Shown here: in pieces, positions 20,297 through 32,982 of the stretch
Numbering within the stretch: the stretch's first letter is position 1
Layout of the letters: each line of letters starts with the position of its first letter
Assembly (NCBI GenBank): GCA_028282885.1
Contig: JANQGX010000032.1
Location: forward strand, 86,439 to 150,438
DNA length: 64,000 nucleotides
Origin: SAR324 cluster bacterium
Lineage (GTDB): Bacteria; SAR324; XYD2-FULL-50-16
Reading direction: 5' to 3'
Translations under genes and position numbers: made by a program
Notes under the pieces: model-generated
What the model was told of the DNA's origin: nothing
What the model saw: only the letters and a program-made list of their open reading frames with translations
The model's database searches: none

Positions 20297-21139
20297 ATGA
20301 AATGGAATAGTATAATAAACAAAGTGGAGACCATCTCCATTGAGGATGCCAAGGCATATTTCAATTCTCACGGCTCCGACGAATACCAACTGGTAGATGT
20401 CCGGCAGCCCGAGGAATACAGCAAACGTCATCTTCCCGGTTCCCTTTTGATCCCTTTGGAAGAATTAATAGAAGGAAAGGGAGGCCTGGACAAGGAAAAA
20501 GCGGTTTTTGTTTACAGCGGAGGCAACAACCGCAGTCTGGCGGCCGGTCAGTGGCTTAATAGTCAGGGCTTTCGGGAGGTACGGTACCTGGAGGGTGGAA
20601 TCTCTTCCTGGTACGGAGAGCTGGCCTTTGGTCATTTCGAACTGAATCTGAATCTCCTGGATCCGAACGTGGAATATGAAGATGCCATCAGCATGGCCTA
20701 CGCCATGGAAGAGGGTCTGCAACAGTTTTACATCATGCTTGCCCGGGAAACGGAAGATGAAGCGTTTAAGAGGCTGTATCGTAAACTGGCTTCATTTGAG
20801 GTGGATCATAAACGCGACCTTTCCAGGATCTATTCCATCTCCCAGGGTAAAGAGATGGTTCAGAAGGAATTTGCCGAACATGACGGCCAGATTCTCGAAG
20901 GGGGCGGCTATGCCGATATCACCTTGATTAAGACCCTGGCTAACACCGAAAGCGCCCGGGACGTGTTTGGCCTTGCTGCCGCGTTTGAAACCCAGGCCAT
21001 GGATTTTTATACAAGGCTGGCGGTGAAAGCGGAAAAACCGGAGGTAAAAAAATTCTTTCTTGAGATGGCCGATGCCGAGAAAAAGCATCTGGCTTTTGTG
21101 GCCAGTGAACTGGACCAATATTTGAAAAAAAATAATTAA
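20297..21139 (+). CDS. rhodanese-domain / rubrerythrin-like (ferritin-like diiron) fusion protein
   Basis: N-terminal rhodanese fold (...VDVRQPEEY..., active-site loop VYSGGNNRS with Ser where the catalytic Cys is expected); C-terminal four-helix domain with two E...ExxH motifs (FEVDH; AEKKH). Confidence 0.7.
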   Translation: MKWNSIINKVETISIEDAKAYFNSHGSDEYQLVDVRQPEEYSKRHLPGSLLIPLEELIEGKGGLDKEKAVFVYSGGNNRSLAAGQWLNSQGFREVRYLEGGISSWYGELAFGHFELNLNLLDPNVEYEDAISMAYAMEEGLQQFYIMLARETEDEAFKRLYRKLASFEVDHKRDLSRIYSISQGKEMVQKEFAEHDGQILEGGGYADITLIKTLANTESARDVFGLAAAFETQAMDFYTRLAVKAEKPEVKKFFLEMADAEKKHLAFVASELDQYLKKNN

Positions 21140-21162
21140 ACAGTCTAAAAAAATCAAACACT

Positions 21163-21813
21163 ATGGATTCAAGCAAGATACTGGATAAGCTCAATGTCAG
21201 GGATGGTATCGTCAATAATCGTCAACATCCCAGCCTCAATCTGCAAGCCAGGGAAGCGGGATTTGAGATCTACAATTTCCTCAGTCAGGATGGGAAACCT
21301 TACTCACTCGGAGATGACGCGGATTACCTGAAACTTTTCATGCAGATGGCTGAAAGCATCTATCTTAACAATGGGACATTCCTTGGAACGTGCCTTGTCG
21401 CTTCCGATATGGGTGGCAGCCGTCTTTTTGTCAAGGAGTTTACCGATCAGGAAAAAGAGGAGTTCAAATATGCGCATGTATGCCTGCTTAGCACCATGAA
21501 AAGGCTTTCTGATGAAAACAGGCCGGAAACCTTCAGCTTTTTCGGAGAGCTGAACCTGGTGGATTCCAAAGAAGAGAAATTCGAAAGAGAATCCAGAAAG
21601 ACCGCCAGGGTTCTCTCCGGAGAGGAACGGGAAAACTGGCTGGAGATCATTGACAAGCGATATCAATTTCTCAAAACCGATGTGTATGTCTATTCGCTGT
21701 TAAAGCTCTTCTCCTGGGGATTTCAGGTCATCGAATCGGAAGGTAATGTCCGGGAAGAGCAGAACCTTGTCAGACCCAACCGACCCAAACCCAGGGGGGC
21801 GAGTCGAAAATAG
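21163..21813 (+). CDS. hypothetical protein
   Basis: 216-aa ORF 24 nt downstream of previous gene, no recognisable motifs. Confidence 0.45.
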   Translation: MDSSKILDKLNVRDGIVNNRQHPSLNLQAREAGFEIYNFLSQDGKPYSLGDDADYLKLFMQMAESIYLNNGTFLGTCLVASDMGGSRLFVKEFTDQEKEEFKYAHVCLLSTMKRLSDENRPETFSFFGELNLVDSKEEKFERESRKTARVLSGEERENWLEIIDKRYQFLKTDVYVYSLLKLFSWGFQVIESEGNVREEQNLVRPNRPKPRGASRK

Positions 21814-21914
21814 AAGCAAACCATTTGTTACTACTGTTCCGAACCAGCCTGGCCGGGAAGCCTGGCCCTGCTGCAATGAAGAGCAGTCAACCCTTAACCC
21901 GAAAAGGAGAAACC

Positions 21915-22424
21915 ATGGATCTCGGAGAAGCTATCAAAACAGCAATTGCGCTGGAAGACAAGATCGTTAACGTCTACACCAAGTACGCAGATAAGTTCAG
22001 CTCACCCGTTGCCAGCAAGATTTTCAAACTGCTGGGCGAAGAGGAAGAAGGCCATACCGCCTATTTAAAGGCGAAACTTGAGCAGTGGCAAAACTCGGGA
22101 AAGATTACCGTTGATGACATCAAAACCATTGTTCCCGACAAAGAGGTGATCAAGGAAAATGTTAAAAAACACAAAGCCGCGGCAAAACAGGCCAACATTG
22201 ATGACGAAATTGAAGTCTTCAAAAAGGCGTTGGAGATGGAAAGCCAAGCTTCGGCTTTTTACAAGGATCTTGTAGGTAAGCTGGCACCTGAAGACCAGGT
22301 TTTGTTCAAACGTTTTATCGAAATTGAAGAGGGACACGAAGCCATTGTCAAAGCCGAAATCGACAATGCACGAGGTTTCGGATTCTGGTTCGATTTTCAG
22401 GAATTTGATCTGGAAAGTGCATAG
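21915..22424 (+). CDS. rubrerythrin/ferritin-like diiron-carboxylate protein (paralog 1)
   Basis: Start at ATG 21915 (AAAAGGAGA RBS); two-repeat E...ExxH architecture (EEEGH; EEGHEAIV); paralogous to 26162..26677 and 28408..28884. Confidence 0.65.
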   Translation: MDLGEAIKTAIALEDKIVNVYTKYADKFSSPVASKIFKLLGEEEEGHTAYLKAKLEQWQNSGKITVDDIKTIVPDKEVIKENVKKHKAAAKQANIDDEIEVFKKALEMESQASAFYKDLVGKLAPEDQVLFKRFIEIEEGHEAIVKAEIDNARGFGFWFDFQEFDLESA

Positions 22425-22522
22425 AAAAAGCTACTTTGACAGAGAATCTGATTGCCAACCGGGCAATGAGCCCGGTTGGATTGAAATGGAAGATTTGAGA
22501 CAATTTAAAACAGGAAAATCTG

Positions 22523-23035
22523 ATGCTTACAGAAAAAATGGAAGCCAAGCTGAACGAGCATATTAATGCCGAACTCTATTCAGCTTATCTGTATCTATCC
22601 ATGTCGGCTTATTTCAAGTCGATTGATCTGCCCGGTTTTGTCAACTGGATGCAAGTACAATTCGAAGAAGAAATGTCCCATGCGATGAAATTCTTTGAGT
22701 TTGTTGATAATATGAACGGTAGAATTCGCCTGGCGACTATCCAGGCGCCGCCTGTGGAATGGGAGTCTCCCGTTGAAGTCTTTCAGGAGACCTATGATCA
22801 TGAGCGTTCGGTCTCCGAACAGATCTTTAAGCTGGTGAGCCTGTCGCTGGAAGAAAATGACCATGCCACCAATAACTTCCTGCAATGGTTTGTTGCAGAG
22901 CAGGTCGAAGAGGAATCATCGGTGAAATCAATCCTCAGTAAGCTGAAATTTATCGGGGATTCCAAGTCAGGACTCTTCATGGTGGACCAGGAGCTGGCCA
23001 AACGGACCGTCTCAACGGACACGGCACCTGTGTAA
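22523..23035 (+). CDS. ftnA: non-heme ferritin
   Basis: 170 aa with classic Ftn ferroxidase-centre residues (...NAELYSAYLYLSMSAY...EEEMSHAMKFFEF...QETYDHE...). Confidence 0.85.
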   Translation: MLTEKMEAKLNEHINAELYSAYLYLSMSAYFKSIDLPGFVNWMQVQFEEEMSHAMKFFEFVDNMNGRIRLATIQAPPVEWESPVEVFQETYDHERSVSEQIFKLVSLSLEENDHATNNFLQWFVAEQVEEESSVKSILSKLKFIGDSKSGLFMVDQELAKRTVSTDTAPV

Positions 23036-23133
23036 CCGAAACCCGGTAAATTGATATCAATTGTAACCGGGCGGGCCCGTGCTATCGGGCCCGTATGCTT
23101 TCCCGGAACTATCCAACCTTTTGACAATCAAAC

Positions 23134-23490
23134 ATGAAAAAAGCAACCATCTATCACAATCCCAAGTGAAGCACCAGTAGAAAAGCACTGGCAGTGCTTG
23201 AAGAGAGTGGTGTGGAATTCCGAATCGTTGAATACCTGAAAAACCCACCTTCGGTGGCTGAATTGAAAAAAATAGCCAAAGGGATCGGAGTCGATCCTGT
23301 TGAATTGCTTCGACCAAAAGACAAACGCTTTAAAGAACTGGGATTGTCCAAGAAAGATGACAGGAGCCAGGATGATTGGTTACGCCTGATGAACAAAAAT
23401 CCCAGTATCATTGAACGTCCCATCGTGGCATATGCAGGTAAATATGCCATGGGAAGACCGCCGGAAAGCATTTGGGAAATTCTGAACTGA
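23134..23490 (+). CDS. arsC: ArsC-family arsenate reductase/thiol-disulfide protein with in-frame TGA (putative selenocysteine) at the catalytic-Cys position
   Basis: ATG 23134...MKKATIYHNPK-TGA(23167-23169)-STSRKALAVLEESGVEFRIVEYLKNPPS... matches E. coli ArsC TIYHNPACGTSRNTLEMI...YLENPPS...; TGA aligns with Cys12; same frame as ORF-track 23194..23490; 7-bp stem-loop 23183..23199 lies 13 nt after TGA (SECIS-like). Confidence 0.65.
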
Positions 23491-23547
23491 TGCGAAGAGA
23501 AACCTCATGCGACAGGCATATTAATCCCAACCCGAACAAGGAAAACA

Positions 23548-25239
23548 ATGGATATTGATATTTCAATAAAAATTGGCGGTGAAGCCGGGCAGGGTATCCA
23601 GACTGTGGGTGACCTCCTGGCCAATGTCTGCCGTGAAGCAGGGCTCTATATCACTGGCATCAATGATTTCGAGTCCAGAATCAGGGGCGGACACAGTTAT
23701 TTTCAGATCAGAATATGCAATACGTCGGTTTCAGCTCCGGAAACCACTGCCCACATGGTGGTTGCGCTGAATGAACAGACCTATGAGTTGCATCACCAGG
23801 ATATTCATGAGGGTGGGCTTGTTATAATGGATGCCCGTGAAGCCCCGGCTGAAAACGTGATTGCGGTTCCCATCAGGGAGTTGGCAGTGGAAGCCGGGGG
23901 CAGGGTGATGGCCAACACGGTTGCTGTCGGTGCTGTGCTCGGTTTGCTGGGTGCCCCTTTTCACATCCTGGAAGGCTTGCTGACCAGACGCTTTTCCAGA
24001 AAAAGCCAACAGATCGTGGATAACAATATTGCAGCTGCCAAACTGGGTTTTGAGGCCGTCAAAGATACTTCTTTCAAATGGTCCTTCGACTGGAACAGGG
24101 GAGAACCCAAGGGAACCCTTATCAACGGTTCTAAAGCGGTAGCTCTCGGGGCTCTGGCTGCAGATTGTCGATTCGCCGCATTTTACCCCATGTCTCCGGC
24201 TACCTCCGTCATGCAGGATCTGAACTCCTTTTCCGGTAAAATTCCCATGATAGTGGAACAGGTGGAGGATGAGATCGCCGCAGTCAACGCCATCATTGGG
24301 GCTTCATATGCCGGGATTCGATCAATGACCTCCACGTCGGGCGGCGGATTTTCCCTGATGGTGGAAGGACTCGGTCTGGCCGGGATTACGGAAACTCCTA
24401 TTGTTGTCGTCGATGCCCAACGACCCGGACCTGCTACCGGATTGCCGACCCGTACCGCCCAACCCGACCTGCTTTTTGCCATCAGGGCGTCCCAGGACGA
24501 ATTCCCCAGGTTTGTGCTGGCCCCGGGATCGCCGGGAGAGGCCTATACCATTACCACCAGGGCGTTCGAACTGGCCGACAAGTACCAGGTGCCGGTTATC
24601 ATCCTGGTTGACCAGTATCTCTGCGACTCTCTCTTTATCGAAGAGAACCCATTTAAAATTCCCACCGAGATTAATCGTTATACCGTCACCGACGAGGATA
24701 TGGCTGACCCGAGACAATATGTCCGTTATGCCCTGACCGAAGACGGCGTCTCTCCAAGAGCCCTGCCATGCAATGGTGAAGCCCTGGTGATGGCCTCCGG
24801 GAATGAGCATACGGAAGACGGCCATATCAGTGAAGATCCTGCCAACCGGGTTGCCATGATGGATAAACGCGCCGCTAAAATCCCGAGGATGATTGATGAA
24901 CTGGATCCGCCCGAAACTTATCATGGTGAAAGCGAATTGCTGGTTGTGGGATGGGGATCCACCAGGGGCGCTATCAGAGAAGCGGTAGAGATCCTGAGAA
25001 ACGGGGGAATGGATATCGGCTGCCTGCATTTCACGGACATCTGGCCGTTTCCCACAGATGTTGTGACGGCCGCACTTGAAAAAGCCGAACGGTTTGTCAT
25101 GGTGGAGCAAAACTCATCGGCCCAGTTTGGACAGTTGATCAGGGAACAAACCGGTCTGTCTTACTCCGCATCAATCCTCAAATATGACGGCAGGCCTTTC
25201 TATACTGATGAGGTTGTTGAGAAAATCAAACAGATATAA
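23548..25239 (+). CDS. 2-oxoacid:ferredoxin oxidoreductase, fused gamma/alpha subunit
   Basis: 563 aa; N-terminal gamma-like domain (MDIDISIKIGGEAGQGIQTVGDLLA...) followed by alpha (KorA-like) domains. Confidence 0.8.
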   Translation: MDIDISIKIGGEAGQGIQTVGDLLANVCREAGLYITGINDFESRIRGGHSYFQIRICNTSVSAPETTAHMVVALNEQTYELHHQDIHEGGLVIMDAREAPAENVIAVPIRELAVEAGGRVMANTVAVGAVLGLLGAPFHILEGLLTRRFSRKSQQIVDNNIAAAKLGFEAVKDTSFKWSFDWNRGEPKGTLINGSKAVALGALAADCRFAAFYPMSPATSVMQDLNSFSGKIPMIVEQVEDEIAAVNAIIGASYAGIRSMTSTSGGGFSLMVEGLGLAGITETPIVVVDAQRPGPATGLPTRTAQPDLLFAIRASQDEFPRFVLAPGSPGEAYTITTRAFELADKYQVPVIILVDQYLCDSLFIEENPFKIPTEINRYTVTDEDMADPRQYVRYALTEDGVSPRALPCNGEALVMASGNEHTEDGHISEDPANRVAMMDKRAAKIPRMIDELDPPETYHGESELLVVGWGSTRGAIREAVEILRNGGMDIGCLHFTDIWPFPTDVVTAALEKAERFVMVEQNSSAQFGQLIREQTGLSYSASILKYDGRPFYTDEVVEKIKQI

Positions 25240-25250
25240 GGAGCAGGATC

Positions 25251-26105
25251 ATGGTGAAAATCGAAGATTATCATAATGACTACGAAAACAAATGGTGCCC
25301 GGGTTGCGGAAACTTCGGCCTTTTGGATGCCATGAAAGATGCACTGGTCAACCTGGATATTGCTCCCCGTGATATTCTCCTCATTTCCGGAATCGGTCAG
25401 GCTGCCAAAACGCCCCATTTCATGAATTGTAATTTCTTTCACACCCTACACGGCCGGGCATTGCCGATTGCAACCGGTGCCAAGCTGGCCAATCATGACC
25501 TGAAAATTCTGGTTAATTCGGGGGATGGAGATTGCTATGGTGAGGGGGGGAATCATTTTATCAATGCCATTCGTCGCAATCTGGATATCACCCTTTTGGT
25601 TCATCACAACAAGGTTTATGGTTTGACCAAAGGCCAAGCAGCTCCGACATCGGATATGGGATTTGTCACCCCGCAACAACCCGATGGCGTCAGAACTGAT
25701 CCGTTGAATCCAGTCAAACTAGCACTCAGTCTGGGAGCGAGTTTTGTGGCAAGGGGATTTTCCAACAACCGGAAGCACCTGAGCCGGTTGATACAGGATG
25801 CCATCCAGTACAGGGGATTCTCCCTGGTGGACATACTTCAGCCCTGTGTCACCTATAACAAGATCAATTCCCACGCCTGGTTCAAGAAGCGGGCTTATGA
25901 TCTGTATGAAACGGATTACCAACCCGATAAACTGGACGAGGCACTCTTTCTGGCCGAGGAGTGGGAAGATAAAATCCCAATTGGTATTCTTTATCGTAAG
26001 GATTCAATTCCCTTTCATGAAAGAATAGGCCAGCTCAAAGAGGGAACATTGATATCTCGTCCTTATGATGCGGCGACGATTCAGGAAATTCTCTCCGCGG
26101 TCTGA
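25251..26105 (+). CDS. 2-oxoacid:ferredoxin oxidoreductase beta subunit (TPP-binding)
   Basis: 284 aa, CPGCG N-terminal motif and TPP-binding GDGDCYGEGGNHFINAIRRN; 12 nt downstream of alpha gene. Confidence 0.8.
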   Translation: MVKIEDYHNDYENKWCPGCGNFGLLDAMKDALVNLDIAPRDILLISGIGQAAKTPHFMNCNFFHTLHGRALPIATGAKLANHDLKILVNSGDGDCYGEGGNHFINAIRRNLDITLLVHHNKVYGLTKGQAAPTSDMGFVTPQQPDGVRTDPLNPVKLALSLGASFVARGFSNNRKHLSRLIQDAIQYRGFSLVDILQPCVTYNKINSHAWFKKRAYDLYETDYQPDKLDEALFLAEEWEDKIPIGILYRKDSIPFHERIGQLKEGTLISRPYDAATIQEILSAV

Positions 26106-26161
26106 GAAAAGGTGTTAAGAACTGCAGTGGCGATAGCGCTGCTGCAGTTTTAAAGGAACTG

Positions 26162-26677
26162 CTAACCATCCAGCAGGGATTTTTCGGAACTCATCATCCA
26201 GCCTTCCGGATCTTCAAAGTAGAGCAGGGTGTTTTCCAGCGACGCCACGTGTTTGTGTTCAACGGCAGCCATATATTCGAAAAACTTTTTCTCATCCGGA
26301 TCTTCGGTTTTTTTGATCAGATCCTTGTAAAAGAGATGGGCTTTGGTTTCGAAATCGATGGCAATCTGCACTGCTTCCCTGTCATCGGTCGTTGATTTGG
26401 CGGCTCCCTCGGCGGATGCAATCATCTCTTTCAATCCTTCCTTGATATCGGTTTCATCCACAACAGGTGATATCTCCTCCGGCCATTCCCCCCTCTCTTC
26501 AAGGTTTTTGTGAATCTTCAGCAACTGCTCATAGTGCATGTCCTCTTCTTTGGCGATGGTTTCGAACATTTTTTTTCCAACCGGATTGGTCACCTTCTTG
26601 CTCAATGTGGTATAGTAATCCTTCTCTTCTTTTTCATTGTTTAATGCTACCTCGATAGCTTTTAAACTTGGCTTCAT
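26162..26677 (-). CDS. rubrerythrin/ferritin-like diiron-carboxylate protein (paralog 2)
   Basis: 171 aa; two E...ExxH repeats (EEDMH; EHKH); paralog of 21915..22424 and 28408..28884. Confidence 0.65.
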   Translation of the reverse strand: MKPSLKAIEVALNNEKEEKDYYTTLSKKVTNPVGKKMFETIAKEEDMHYEQLLKIHKNLEERGEWPEEISPVVDETDIKEGLKEMIASAEGAAKSTTDDREAVQIAIDFETKAHLFYKDLIKKTEDPDEKKFFEYMAAVEHKHVASLENTLLYFEDPEGWMMSSEKSLLDG

Positions 26678-26989
26678 GGGTTTCTCCTTCTTCCGGTGTT
26701 GATGATAATCAAGTACCTATCCGGCCCTGTATACCCCGCAACCGTTCCAAATAGGTACCATAATGCGTTGTCAAACCTCAATCAGGATGTATCAGTGCTA
26801 CATCCCTCCGTTTTCGGTCTCGGACCTTCGCAACTCTGTTCAGATTTTTATATTTTTCCCACAAGGCGGGATGGATATAAAAAAATTCTGCAAAGCCTGT
26901 GCCCGCTTTTTTCCCGATTTCATGGGATTTTCCCTCCCGAGGGCCTCAATCCGCCATGAGAAAGAGGGATAAAGCGTATTGTACAACTA

Positions 26990-27002
26990 TGTATCATAAA
27001 AA
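26990..27002. promoter_or_regulatory. TGTATCATAAAAA motif copy 1 (Fur/PerR-like hexamer array) in divergent promoter region
   Basis: 13-nt motif repeated exactly at 27227..27239; surrounding sequence carries nATwAT-type hexamers typical of Fur-family boxes. Confidence 0.3.
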
Positions 27003-27226
27003 CCTATGAGACATAAGCATTATTTAAAAGATCAATAATTCTAAAAATGTACACTCGAAACTGAACATTAATCTGTCCTATGGCTGCAGGATTCGGAGCT
27101 GTGTGACATTTTTTATTTTGAAAAGTTTGGACATTTGCCATGGAATCCTGTATAAAGACTATATAAATCAAATGATTAAAAAAATGGCACGCATCCTGAA
27201 ACATAGAGATCAAAAATTATCATCAT

Positions 27227-27239
27227 TGTATCATAAAAA
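27227..27239. promoter_or_regulatory. TGTATCATAAAAA motif copy 2 (context TTATCATCATTGTATCATAA)
   Basis: Exact repeat of 26990..27002; 34 nt upstream of the small ORF/rubrerythrin gene pair. Confidence 0.3.
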
Positions 27240-27272
27240 TCAGTCAAAACCAATTTTCCAGAGGCTAGATAA

Positions 27273-27485
27273 GTGGAGTTAAGGAGATGCGACCAGAACA
27301 TTATTGAGACACTCAAACTGGTCGAAAAGATGTTAAAGCTGGCGCAGCAGGGTGATGCTGAAAGGGAGGATGTTGCCTGTGGAGTGTTGTACGGGGTTAT
27401 GCTCGATTCCGCTTTTAAGATTAAAAAGCTGGCGGAACAGGAGAGAGACTCGCATATCAAAAAAGGCTGGTGGAAAAAAGCCTGA
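27273..27485 (+). CDS. small hypothetical protein (70 aa, GTG start)
   Basis: ORF directly upstream of rubrerythrin; helical, no motif; start uncertain. Confidence 0.3.
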   Translation: MELRRCDQNIIETLKLVEKMLKLAQQGDAEREDVACGVLYGVMLDSAFKIKKLAEQERDSHIKKGWWKKA

Positions 27486-27540
27486 AGTTTTCCATGCTCT
27501 CATAATTCTATGAGATTTTTTATTCAACCCAAAATCAGGA

Positions 27541-28098
27541 GTGTTTATGAAAAAATGGGTATGTTCAGTATGTGGTTATGTTCATGATGGTGATAACCCG
27601 CCGGAGGAGTGTCCGCAATGTAAGGCCAGCTCGGATAAGTTTTACGAGCAACAGGCAGGTGATCTCGCATGGGCAGATGAACACAGGATTGGTGTGGCAG
27701 CGAAGGATATTGATCCTGAGGTTCTGGATGGATTAAGGGCGAATTTTACGGGTGAATGCACGGAAGTTGGGATGTACCTTGCCATGAGCCGTCAGGCGGA
27801 TCGGGAAGGGTATCCGGAGGTTGCAGAAGCCTACAAGCGTATAGCCTGGGAGGAGGCTGAGCACGCATCCAAGTTTGCGGAGTTATTGGGCGAAGTGGTT
27901 GTAGCCGACACCAAAGCCAATCTCAAGGCAAGAGTTGAAGCTGAGCACGGTGCCTGCAAAGGCAAAAAGGATTTGGCAACCAAAGCCAAGCAGCTCAACT
28001 ATGATGCCATCCACGACACCGTTCACGAAATGTGCAAAGACGAAGCCCGACATGGTGCTGCCTTTGCCGGATTGCTCAAGCGATACTTCGGTGAATAG
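27541..28098 (+). CDS. rbr: reverse rubrerythrin (N-terminal rubredoxin-like domain + diiron ferritin-like domain)
   Basis: N-terminal CSVCGY...CPQCKA FeCys4 knuckles followed by rubrerythrin diiron domain ([16 protein letters not shown]...EEAEHASKF...; [12 protein letters not shown]...CKDEARHG). Confidence 0.85.
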
Positions 28099-28407
28099 GG
28101 TCGGATTCAATCGATCATTTGTTTAGATTCTAATTCCACCATACCATGATTTAACCGGGAAGCGGGTTGAAATTCATAACAGTTTGTCTTGTTAAAAGGA
28201 AATCATGTCTGGTATGAATACCTTTAAGACAAAACGTTAAGATGTTGATCTCCCCTTGCTCGAACATGCGGAACTCTTCCGATATGATGCGGGGGCGAAG
28301 ACAACAAATTGAGTCCCGTGATCGATGAGGGGTAATGGCTTTAAGAAGCGAAAAAGCGATTATCCCTCCCGCTGATCGATCATGCCAAACATTAATGGAG
28401 AATTGTG

Positions 28408-28884
28408 ATGTATCATAAGTTTAATGCCAAGGCTATTTTGGAAATGGCTGAAAACATTGAAAAAAACGGATATGCCTTTTATCGAAAGGCAGCAGATGAT
28501 GTTAAAGACCCTGAAATCAAAACTTTTTTGCTGGAACTGGCCGAAATGGAAGTCGGGCACGAGAAGTTATTTACCTCCATGAAATCAAAACTTTCGGACA
28601 AAGAGAGTGAAGATATCGTTTTCGATCCCTATGATGAAGCTGCTCTTTATATTGAGGCCCTGGCCGACACCAGGGTGTTCTATGAAAAGACCATCGATAC
28701 CTCGTCAGCGGAAGAGGTTTTCAAAGCAGCTATTGAAGCAGAGAAAGAATCCATCGTATTTTACCTGGGGATGAAAGAACTGGTTCCCGATGAGGCCGGG
28801 AAAGATAAAATTCAAGAAATCATCAAAGAAGAGATGAAGCACATTCAGACCATCAGCAAAAAGCTGCTGGCTATTAAAAGATAA
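28408..28884 (+). CDS. rubrerythrin/ferritin-like diiron-carboxylate protein (paralog 3)
   Basis: Start at ATG 28408 (GGAG RBS 7 nt upstream); two E...ExxH repeats (EMEVGHE; EEMKH). Confidence 0.65.
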   Translation: MYHKFNAKAILEMAENIEKNGYAFYRKAADDVKDPEIKTFLLELAEMEVGHEKLFTSMKSKLSDKESEDIVFDPYDEAALYIEALADTRVFYEKTIDTSSAEEVFKAAIEAEKESIVFYLGMKELVPDEAGKDKIQEIIKEEMKHIQTISKKLLAIKR

Positions 28885-29021
28885 CATTCGTCCGGGTGTT
28901 TTGGCTTTCACCCGCTACCAAAAATCGCTGACAGTGTCCTGTTCACCCTCCTGTTTGCCGGAAGACACCGGCAACCGGATTTTTATCATAAACCCAAACA
29001 CACTTAACAACGGAGAAGAAA

Positions 29022-29183
29022 ATGGCAAAATACAGATGTGAAACCTGCGACTACATTTACGATCCTGCCGAAGGTGATCCCGATTCCGGAATCGATCCCG
29101 GCACTTCGTTTGAGGACCTGCCGGATGATTGGGAATGTCCCGTTTGCGGCGTCGGCAAGGAAGACTTTGTCAAAGAGGGATAG
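29022..29183 (+). CDS. rd: rubredoxin (53 aa; absent from ORF track)
   Basis: [53 protein letters not shown]; canonical CxxC...CPxCG; GGAGAAGAAA RBS; 5 nt upstream of flavodiiron gene. Confidence 0.85.
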
Positions 29184-29188
29184 GAGAT

Positions 29189-30373
29189 ATGCACACGGAA
29201 ACAATTAAGGAAGGGATATACTGGGTAGGCGCTATCGATTGGGATGTAAGGAACTTTCACGGTTACCTGACCCAGCAGGGAACCAGCTATAACGCTTACC
29301 TGATTATAGATGAGAAGATCACCCTGGTGGATACCGTAAAGCCGGATAAATTCGGACAGATGATCGACCGAATCAGTCGCTACGTTGACCCCTCCAGGAT
29401 AGACTATGTCCTCTCCAATCATGTGGAAATGGATCATTCGGGAGGTATTCCCGAACTGATGGAATTGATTCCACAGGCAACCGTTATCACCTCTAAAGCC
29501 GGTGAAAAAGGGCTACGCCAACACTATAAAAAAGAGTGGAACTTTCGGGTCGTGAAATCCGGTGACAGCATCGACATTGGAAAACGAACTCTCAGTTTTG
29601 TTAATACGCCGATGGTGCACTGGCCGGACTCCATGGTGACCTATATTCCTGAGGAGAAGATACTTTTCTCCAATGATGCCTTCGGGCAGCATCTGGCAAC
29701 TTCCGAACGGTTTGATGACGAGCTTGGCTGGAGCGCCGTCAGAAAAGATGCCGCCAAATACTACGCCAACATCGTTTTGCCGTTTGGTAAACAGGTACAA
29801 AAAGCTCTTTCCGCCCTCTCTTCCATGGAAATCGAATTGATAGCACCAAGCCATGGCCTGATGTGGAAATCTCACATTCAGAAGATTATGGCGGAATATC
29901 AGAAATGGTCTAACCACGAAGCTCCCAATAGAGCCCTGATCGTTTATGACTCGATGTGGCAATCAACAGAGAAAATAGCAACCGCACTGGAAAAAGGCCT
30001 GTCCGAATCCGGAATCTACACAACCTTGCGTAATTTAAAGGTTAATCATATTTCGAACATTATGCCGGATGTGATGGAATCGAAACTGGTTCTGCTGGGA
30101 TCTCCTACTTTGAATAACAGTATACTGCCTACCATGGGTCAGTTTTTAACCTACCTCAGGGGACTCAAACCGCAGAACAAGATCGGATTTGCCTTTGGTT
30201 CCTACGGTTGGGGCGGTCAAGCTGTCAAAGAGCTGGTCCAAACCATCGAGGATTTAAACTGGGAAAATCCCCTGGAGGGAGTCAATATTGAATATATTCC
30301 CGATACCGAGGAACTGTCTGCAACGGTGGATATCGGAAAAAGCCTTGCAGAAATTTTGATGAAGTCAAATTGA
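29189..30373 (+). CDS. roo: flavodiiron protein (rubredoxin:oxygen oxidoreductase / FprA-type)
   Basis: Start re-assigned to ATG 29189 (GGGATAGGAG RBS) rather than 29129, which overlaps rubredoxin; metallo-beta-lactamase-like diiron motif HVEMDHSGG; C-terminal flavodoxin-like domain (ALIVYDSMWQSTEKIA). Confidence 0.85.
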   Translation: MHTETIKEGIYWVGAIDWDVRNFHGYLTQQGTSYNAYLIIDEKITLVDTVKPDKFGQMIDRISRYVDPSRIDYVLSNHVEMDHSGGIPELMELIPQATVITSKAGEKGLRQHYKKEWNFRVVKSGDSIDIGKRTLSFVNTPMVHWPDSMVTYIPEEKILFSNDAFGQHLATSERFDDELGWSAVRKDAAKYYANIVLPFGKQVQKALSALSSMEIELIAPSHGLMWKSHIQKIMAEYQKWSNHEAPNRALIVYDSMWQSTEKIATALEKGLSESGIYTTLRNLKVNHISNIMPDVMESKLVLLGSPTLNNSILPTMGQFLTYLRGLKPQNKIGFAFGSYGWGGQAVKELVQTIEDLNWENPLEGVNIEYIPDTEELSATVDIGKSLAEILMKSN

Positions 30374-30621
30374 TGTGGTAGTCTTAATCAGAATCAGTCC
30401 GTTCCTCAATGGAAAGATTAATTCCTGATCCGAAAGCGCTCCGAATCATCACTTTTTGGAGGGGCTTATGTTTTTCGATAAGGTATCATAGGGGCTGATC
30501 AACTCTGGTGTTAAAACTCCCGACATTCGGTTACGTCGGGAGATTGACAAATTTATCGGTGGTCGGTTTCAAACTGCAGACCCCGTTCCAACAGCATATA
30601 ACTGCAAAAGGAGGTAAACCT

Positions 30622-31944
30622 ATGGATCCAGTTTTATTAGCGCGAATCCAGTTTGCTGTTACGGTGGGATTCCACTATATTTTCCCAACCATCACACTGG
30701 GATTGGCTTTTCTGATCGTTATATTTCTTGGATTGTATCTGAAAAAGGAAGACGAGTTGTATGAAAAAATAGCCCGTTTCTGGATTGGAATTTTTGCCAT
30801 CGTATTTTCCATGGGGGTGGCTACGGGGATTGTAATGGAGTTTCAGTTCGGCACCAATTGGGAGAAATATTCCAGATTTGTCGGTGATATCTTCGGGGCA
30901 CCTTTAGCAGCCGAAGGCGTTTTTGCCTTTTTTCTGGAGTCCACCTTTTTAGGAATTCTGCTCTTCGGTCGGAACAAGGTTTCCAAAAAAGTGTACTTTA
31001 TTTCGGCCCTGATGGTATTGATCGGGTCCACCCTGTCCGCTTTCTGGATCATCGTTGCCAATTCCTGGCAGCAGACTCCGGCAGGATACCACATTATCAA
31101 TGGTCGGGCGGAACTGACCAGCTTCTTCGATGCTGTTTTTAATCCTTCCACACTTTACAGATACTCACATGCAGTGGTTGGTGGCTGGGTAACGGGTGGT
31201 TTCTTCGTAGCAGGGCTTAGCGGTTATTTCCTTTTGAAAAAACGACATGTCGAATTTGCCAAGCGCTCCATCTGGATCGCCCTGGTCTTTACCTTGATCA
31301 GTTCGGTTATTCAGATTGAACTGGGACATCTCCATTCAGTTCAGGTGACCAAAACCCAGCCTGAAAAGATGGCGACTTTCGAGTCCATGTTCGAATCCCA
31401 GGCCAATGCACCTCTGGTCATCCTGGGTATCCCCAACGAAGAAGAGAAAAGGATTGATTATGAAGTCAGTATCCCCGGACTATTGAGCTTTATGGTCGGT
31501 TTTGATTCGGATTACGTCGTCAAGGGACGTAATGATTTTCCTGCTGATGAACTGCCCCCGCTGATGCTTCCTTTCTTCTCCTACCGGGTAATGGTGGGGC
31601 TGGCATTTTACTTCCTCCTTGTTGCATTGATCGGAACCTATCTGGCCTGGAAAGATAAGATCGCAGATGCCAGGCGATACCTGTGGGTTTTGTTGCTCAC
31701 TATACCGCTACCGGTCATATCGAACGAGATGGGCTGGATTGCCGCCGAGGTAGGCAGGCAACCCTGGATTGTCTACCGGGAACTGAAAACAGCAGATGCC
31801 ATATCGACGGTTGTCTCCGCCGGAGAAATACTGTTTTCCCTGATCCTTTTCAGCGTTTTGTATGTTGTTCTTTTTTCTCTCTTTGTATTTCTGGTTCGGA
31901 AGAAGATGTTAAAGGGGCCGGAATCCGTTTCTGAAGCATACTAG
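30622..31944 (+). CDS. cydA: cytochrome bd ubiquinol oxidase subunit I
   Basis: Start at ATG 30622 (AAGGAGG RBS): MDPVLLARIQFAVTVGFHYIFPTITLG... canonical CydA N-terminus and Q-loop. Confidence 0.9.
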   Translation: MDPVLLARIQFAVTVGFHYIFPTITLGLAFLIVIFLGLYLKKEDELYEKIARFWIGIFAIVFSMGVATGIVMEFQFGTNWEKYSRFVGDIFGAPLAAEGVFAFFLESTFLGILLFGRNKVSKKVYFISALMVLIGSTLSAFWIIVANSWQQTPAGYHIINGRAELTSFFDAVFNPSTLYRYSHAVVGGWVTGGFFVAGLSGYFLLKKRHVEFAKRSIWIALVFTLISSVIQIELGHLHSVQVTKTQPEKMATFESMFESQANAPLVILGIPNEEEKRIDYEVSIPGLLSFMVGFDSDYVVKGRNDFPADELPPLMLPFFSYRVMVGLAFYFLLVALIGTYLAWKDKIADARRYLWVLLLTIPLPVISNEMGWIAAEVGRQPWIVYRELKTADAISTVVSAGEILFSLILFSVLYVVLFSLFVFLVRKKMLKGPESVSEAY

Positions 31945-31995
31945 GTAAAAAATTGTGAACTTGACTAAAAATAACATACAAAAGGGAGGGACATC

Positions 31996-32982
31996 ATGGA
32001 TCTGAACATTATCTGGTTTTTGCTGATTGGCGTCTTGCTGGTTGGATACTCTGTTCTTGACGGGTTCGACCTGGGAGCGGGAATCCTGCAATTGTTTACA
32101 AAAGGAGAAGAGGAGAAAAAAGCGCTTTTAAAATCGATAGCGCCATTCTGGGACGGAAACGAAGTCTGGTTGTTAACCGGGGGCGGGGCTCTCTTTGCCG
32201 CTTTTCCGCACGTCTATGCCACGGTTTTCAGCGGTTTTTACCTGGCTTTGATGCTGCTTCTGGTAGCCCTTATCTTCAGGGCTGTATCCATTGAATTCCG
32301 AAACCAGGTGGAATCCGAGGGTTGGAAGGGATTCTGGGACATAACCTTTACCGTCTCCAGTTTTGTCACAGCCCTGCTCCTGGGAGTAGCACTTGGTAAT
32401 ATCTTTACCGGAATTCCACTTGACGGTGAGATGAACTATACCGGCTCATTCTTCACTTTATTAAGGCCTCTGCCTCTGTTCGTCGGGCTGACCGGTGTGG
32501 CAATGATTATCACCCAGGGAGCTGCCTACTTGCTGATGAAAACGGATGGAGATCTGCAGGCAAGAGTCAAAGTTTGGATAAAACGTTCGTGGCTGGCTTT
32601 TGTCATTCTTTCGGTACTAACCACCCTGCTGACCCTTATCATTGATTCCAGTAAGGTTTCAGCGATATTCTGCGGATTAGCGGGTTGGATCGCACTGGCT
32701 GTGTTTCTGGTCGGGGTGATATTGGTGCGGGTATTTCTGGCAAAGGATGAATTTTTCAAGGTTTTTATCGCATCATCCCTGATCATTGTCTCCATGTTCC
32801 TGGTCGTGGGCGCCGCTATTTACCCGAATCTGGTACCTGCACTGGAGGCAGCGAACAGCCTGAATATCTACAACTCATCTTCCAGTCAACTGACCCTGAC
32901 TGTTATGCTGGTCATTGCCCTGATCGGAATGCCTGTTGTGATTGCTTATACAATCTACATTTACAGGGCTTTCAGGAAGTAG
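31996..32982 (+). CDS. cydB: cytochrome bd ubiquinol oxidase subunit II
   Basis: MDLNIIWFLLIGVLLVGYSVLDGFDLGAGIL... canonical CydB N-terminus; 328 aa multi-TM. Confidence 0.9.
   Translation: MDLNIIWFLLIGVLLVGYSVLDGFDLGAGILQLFTKGEEEKKALLKSIAPFWDGNEVWLLTGGGALFAAFPHVYATVFSGFYLALMLLLVALIFRAVSIEFRNQVESEGWKGFWDITFTVSSFVTALLLGVALGNIFTGIPLDGEMNYTGSFFTLLRPLPLFVGLTGVAMIITQGAAYLLMKTDGDLQARVKVWIKRSWLAFVILSVLTTLLTLIIDSSKVSAIFCGLAGWIALAVFLVGVILVRVFLAKDEFFKVFIASSLIIVSMFLVVGAAIYPNLVPALEAANSLNIYNSSSSQLTLTVMLVIALIGMPVVIAYTIYIYRAFRK

Follow-up and report, generated by a model that had tools for sequence, protein, structure and literature searches.

In C. difficile, O2/H2O2 reductase activity has been measured for reverse rubrerythrins and flavodiiron proteins, which also show a phenotype in O2 tolerance (PMC7482061). 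Ferriperoxin, a rubredoxin-less homolog, is a peroxidase (PMC3317640), and the archaeoferritin of P. furiosus is both a ferroxidase and an iron store (PMC3401498); the latter protein is >30% identical to PF1190 (PDB 2fzf). The window analyzed here, a contiguous stretch of 64,000 nucleotides, holds a dense cluster in which such proteins lie side by side. Its familiar parts are cytochrome bd, rubredoxin plus flavodiiron protein, reverse rubrerythrin, ferritin, a two-subunit 2-oxoacid:ferredoxin oxidoreductase (OFOR), and a "UxxS" ArsC. The literature yielded no functional description of three further members, a rhodanese-rubrerythrin fusion (Rhd-Rbr), U216, and orf70, the functions of which are only inferred here. 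The features are as follows.

20297-21139, + strand: Rhd-Rbr fusion, 280 aa (Pfam Rhodanese 65.8 bits, Rubrerythrin 50.9 bits)
21163-21813, + strand: U216, a 216-aa orphan, downstream neighbor of Rhd-Rbr
21915-22424, + strand: RbrL1, 169 aa (Pfam Rubrerythrin 40.7 bits)
22523-23035, + strand: non-heme ferritin, FtnA type, 170 aa (Pfam Ferritin 149.7 bits)
23134-23490, + strand: ArsC (selenocysteine), 118 aa (TIGR00014 arsC 122.8 bits)
23548-25239, + strand: OFOR alpha, fused gamma-alpha, 563 aa (TIGR03710 638.7 bits)
25251-26105, + strand: OFOR beta, TPP binding, 284 aa (TIGR02177 354.6 bits)
26162-26677, - strand: RbrL2, 171 aa (Pfam Rubrerythrin 64.4 bits)
26989-27014, no strand: palindrome, candidate regulator site (conservation across loci)
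27185-27199, + strand: sigma-54-like element (perfect -24 box, conservation)
27273-27485, + strand: orf70, 70 aa (at least 385 homolog clusters)
27547-28098, + strand: reverse rubrerythrin (Pfam RUBY_RBDX, residues 6-34; Rubrerythrin, residues 65-178)
28408-28884, + strand: RbrL3, 158 aa (Pfam Rubrerythrin 36.0 bits)
29022-29183, + strand: rubredoxin, 53 aa (Pfam 88.9 bits)
29189-30373, + strand: flavodiiron protein, class A, ROO type, 394 aa (Pfam ODP, Lactamase_B, Flavodoxin_1)
30622-31944, + strand: cydA, cytochrome bd subunit I (Pfam 538.1 bits)
31996-32982, + strand: cydB, cytochrome bd subunit II (Pfam 332.9 bits, TIGR00203 267.2 bits)

The gene list of the initial annotation proved correct, as did its O2/peroxide/iron theme: 15 genes for O2 and peroxide removal and iron sequestration, each with profile matches, occupy 12.7 kb, 14 of them on the plus strand with RbrL2 as the sole exception, and the 216-aa protein and the 70-aa ORF do sit inside the cluster. 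Intergenic gaps span 5 to 309 nt, save one divergent region of 595 nt. The cluster comprises several transcription units, with a convergent terminator, the 595-nt divergent promoter region, and intergenic hairpins within it, features that weaken the case for co-regulation; no operator common to these units was found. We assign a probability of about 0.7, inferred roles included, to the reading of the region as a chromosomal cluster, inherited vertically, in an uncultured anaerobe or microaerophile, with independent units that jointly handle O2, peroxide, and the iron rendered dangerous by them. The organism is of deltaproteobacterial type, SAR324 and "Deltaproteobacteria bacterium" MAGs being its nearest named relatives.

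The cluster is not peculiar to this genome; its gene order is found again on independent contigs from three or more further uncultured lineages, with protein identities of 42 to 88%. The Rhd-Rbr/U216/RbrL1/ferritin block recurs in six loci. SAR324 loci retain only the Rhd-Rbr and U216 pair, the neighbors of which (MutY, reverse rubrerythrin, and MsrAB) are also oxidative-damage genes. The separate promoters and terminators and the failure to find a common operator would suit a historical accident, i.e., adjacency of independent genes with no common function beyond loosely similar annotation. Nonetheless, this explanation is quite improbable, given that co-localization recurs despite rearranged flanks in lineages at 42 to 60% identity and that distant Desulfobacterota carry an independent analogous series, orf67-Rbr-Dfx-Fld-CydAB, headed by an orf70 homolog.

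Horizontal acquisition of the region as an island of oxidative-stress genes, an outcome for which the initial annotation suggested a GC and comparative check, is highly improbable on this evidence. The density of functionally related genes speaks for it, as does the reverse rubrerythrin, which is 85 to 86% identical to the SAR324 copies while neighboring proteins reach 42 to 56%, a disparity that could stem from either transfer of, or strong constraint on, this one gene. However, GC content stays at 0.43 to 0.52 across the cluster, matches that of the remaining window, and shows no step at the two borders; no tRNA lies in the 64-kb window and no integrase or transposase gene was seen at the cluster borders; the upstream flanks (a histidine kinase with Hpt domain and DUF3047) keep their synteny with the cluster in locus L010; and the core order is retained in lineages down to 42% identity.

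The duplicated E...ExxH architecture attributed to all four rubrerythrin-like domains was borne out by alignment, with the E...ExxH...E...ExxH ligand set complete in the aligned columns of these domains and of the reverse rubrerythrin. All five PF02915 domains of the window fall within 8.6 kb, and tblastn found no further copy of this type elsewhere in it. Diversification of the paralogs does stand as a long-term process, with orthologs of each at 47 to 86% identity against 23 to 30% between paralogs. Because the paralogs are this old and each has its own conserved orthologs, their co-occurrence is not the proposed expansion within a single locus; the paralogs stem from ancient duplications, neither local nor recent. 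RbrL1 is a rubrerythrin-like four-helix bundle that lacks a rubredoxin domain; its diiron motif is complete, and its orthologs (61 to 86% identity) come after U216 in six loci (L004, L007, L010, L012, L015, and L016). A 199-aa ORF considered as its reading frame was corrected to 169 aa. RbrL2, also rubredoxin-less, has orthologs at 47 to 81% identity and aligns with the C-terminal domain of Rhd-Rbr with an hhalign probability of 97.7%. RbrL3 is a rubredoxin-less, TM1526-like diiron protein (PDB 1vjx; E value, 1.6e-11), followed by a terminator-like hairpin at 28955-28974 in the terminator scan. PF1190 (2fzf) is the closest solved relative of both the Rhd-Rbr C-terminal domain and RbrL1, although as best PDB match of the latter it is marginal. 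More generally, the nearest solved structures to the RbrL proteins (2fzf, 1vjx, and symerythrin) match with marginal to moderate E values and have no established function. RbrL1-3 may be diiron peroxidases and/or ferroxidases served by external donors, e.g., rubredoxin or ferredoxin.

In Rhd-Rbr, the six diiron ligands (E138, E168/H171, E231, and E261/H264) are kept in 81 to 82 of 82 homologs, and its chemistry would take place at this invariant site. Its AF2 model (pLDDT, 87.6; pTM, 0.86) matched only single-domain rhodaneses in Foldseek. In the rhodanese loop, VYSGGNNRS, Ser74 occupies the position expected for the catalytic Cys. This Cys-to-Ser change had been overlooked in the earlier reading. 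Position 74 is Cys in 49/82 homologs and Ser in the other 33, the latter residue being found in the window copy and in all members of three lineages, while a second paralog subfamily (P0099, P0083, and P0090) retains Cys. Sulfur transfer therefore cannot be the conserved function, and in this organism the domain probably serves for ligand binding or docking rather than as a sulfurtransferase. U216, the obligate neighbor of the fusion, lies directly downstream of it in 16/16 loci, a linkage that the initial annotation had not noted. A set of 1.8 billion representative proteins contains just 16 relatives of U216. The U216 family shares the motifs DDADYL, FLKTDxY, and SWGFQ and the C-terminal tail VRPxxPKPRGASR, with no conserved Cys or His; its model gave no fold match, and the conserved C-terminal third was modeled at pLDDT <50. 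U216 could be a physical partner of Rhd-Rbr.

The Rhd-Rbr/U216/RbrL1/ferritin block, the left half of the cluster, might instead be mainly a module for iron storage and Fe-S cluster repair or supply rather than peroxide scavenging, in which the ferritin-like proteins hold and release iron, the rhodanese handles sulfur or recognizes a sulfur carrier, and U216 is an Fe-S assembly adaptor. We regard this alternative as rather unlikely. The module adjoins sufBCD(S) in three loci (L004, L007, and L015), nifS-nifU lies beside it in SAR324 loci L008 and L014, the module consistently includes a true ferritin, the nearest characterized relative of this rubrerythrin-like branch stores iron and acts as a ferroxidase (PMC3401498), and most homologs keep the rhodanese Cys. 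Yet SUF/NIF adjacency is confined to two of about four lineages and is absent in the window, L010, and L012, and both the Ser variants and the lack of conserved Cys or His in U216 argue against it. Less probable still is a role of Rhd-Rbr in persulfide or thiosulfate metabolism, with the rhodanese domain delivering sulfane sulfur to the diiron site in the manner of persulfide dioxygenases fused to rhodanese and of CoA-persulfide reductases that carry a rhodanese domain. Structural neighbors of the domain do include PRF (5ve5), CoADR-RHD (3icr), and persulfide reductases (3nt6 and 6pfz), and the Cys-bearing second subfamily is preceded in 2/3 loci examined (L018 and L019) by a gene for a 229- to 234-aa metallo-beta-lactamase-fold protein, which matches persulfide dioxygenases in size, its class being assigned by fold only. 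Besides the Ser in the window copy and in all members of three lineages, the neighbors in every locus (rubrerythrins, ferritin, rubredoxin, and DNA/protein repair genes, with no sulfur-oxidation genes) weigh against this proposal.

Within the favored cluster for O2, peroxide, and iron, the ferritin would store iron; it comes after RbrL1 in five other loci and scores 127.4 bits against the NCBIfam non-heme ferritin profile, under the 178-bit equivalog cutoff. ArsC has an in-frame TGA at 23167-23169 at the catalytic Cys position (motif U-S-T-S); three lineages have TGA at this position and three others Cys, and the flanking sequence is conserved on both sides. Read with U as C, the protein passes the TIGR00014 cutoff (106.05), and it matches PDB arsenate reductases with E values down to 4.8e-28. 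A SECIS-like hairpin at about 23171-23213 (dG, -17.3 kcal/mol; z, -2.19) showed no covariation among three sequences. Selenocysteine ArsC of the "UxxS" type has already been catalogued as a predicted selenoprotein family (PMC2398784, PMC9312934), a status missed in the initial annotation. ArsC may be a plain arsenate reductase without an O2 connection. The gene of this putative selenocysteine reductase lies immediately 5' of those of OFOR, which is of the two-subunit Sulfolobus/Magnetococcus type. Both OFOR subunits exceed their profile cutoffs (TIGR03710, 482.75; TIGR02177, 261.9), and the nearest structures of alpha are 5b46 (Sulfolobus OFOR) and 6n2n. A hairpin at 26115-26154 (inverted repeat I2) follows OFOR beta and is common to the convergent RbrL2 gene. 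ArsC-OFORab adjoins the module in four loci from three lineages, and OFOR thus belongs with the cluster, as first suggested. The enzyme is expected to oxidize 2-oxoacids and might be a source of reduced ferredoxin or sustain 2-oxoacid oxidation in O2.

The reverse rubrerythrin, with an N-terminal rubredoxin-like CxxC...CxxC domain ahead of a diiron four-helix bundle and PDB matches to sulerythrin and rubrerythrin, would reduce H2O2 and O2. The flavodiiron gene begins 5 nt past that of rubredoxin (NCBIfam RubredRD, 102.4 bits; cutoff, 90). Its translation contains the diiron motif HVEMDH and scores under the NorV equivalog cutoffs. Rubredoxin would pass electrons to this class A protein for cytoplasmic reduction of O2 (or NO), and cytochrome bd, with CydB well over the TIGR00203 cutoff of 117.3 bits, would reduce O2 at the membrane.

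Within the cluster, a conserved palindrome and a sigma-54-like element are found solely before orf70 and the reverse rubrerythrin gene. The palindrome, ATGTATCAT-N8-ATGAGACAT in the divergent RbrL2/orf70 region, occurs once in the window (0 expected by chance), is kept in L010, L012, and the distant locus L021, and is a candidate regulator-binding site. The sigma-54-like element TGGCACGCATCCTGA, 74 nt 5' of orf70, has a perfect -24 box and TGA instead of the canonical TGC in its -12 box. Every lineage checked has such an element 5' of its orf70 homolog, at 40 to 75 nt in five loci (the window, L010, L012, L020, and L022) and at about 515 nt in L021, there 125 nt before an intervening 120-aa gene. 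No enhancer-binding-protein gene occurred among the window ORFs scanned. The orf70 homolog is immediately 5' of a rubrerythrin gene in 4/5 loci checked (the window, L010, L020, and L022) and 1.7 kb upstream of one in L021. Both genes are presumably coexpressed from the sigma-54-like promoter with its upstream palindromic site, and orf70 may serve rubrerythrin as a partner in cofactor handling or regulation. Its homologs, in at least 385 clusters at 60 to 86% identity and with no Pfam domain, have invariant Cys6, Cys36, and His61 and the C terminus KGWW. That orf70 is a widespread conserved gene had been missed in the earlier reading.

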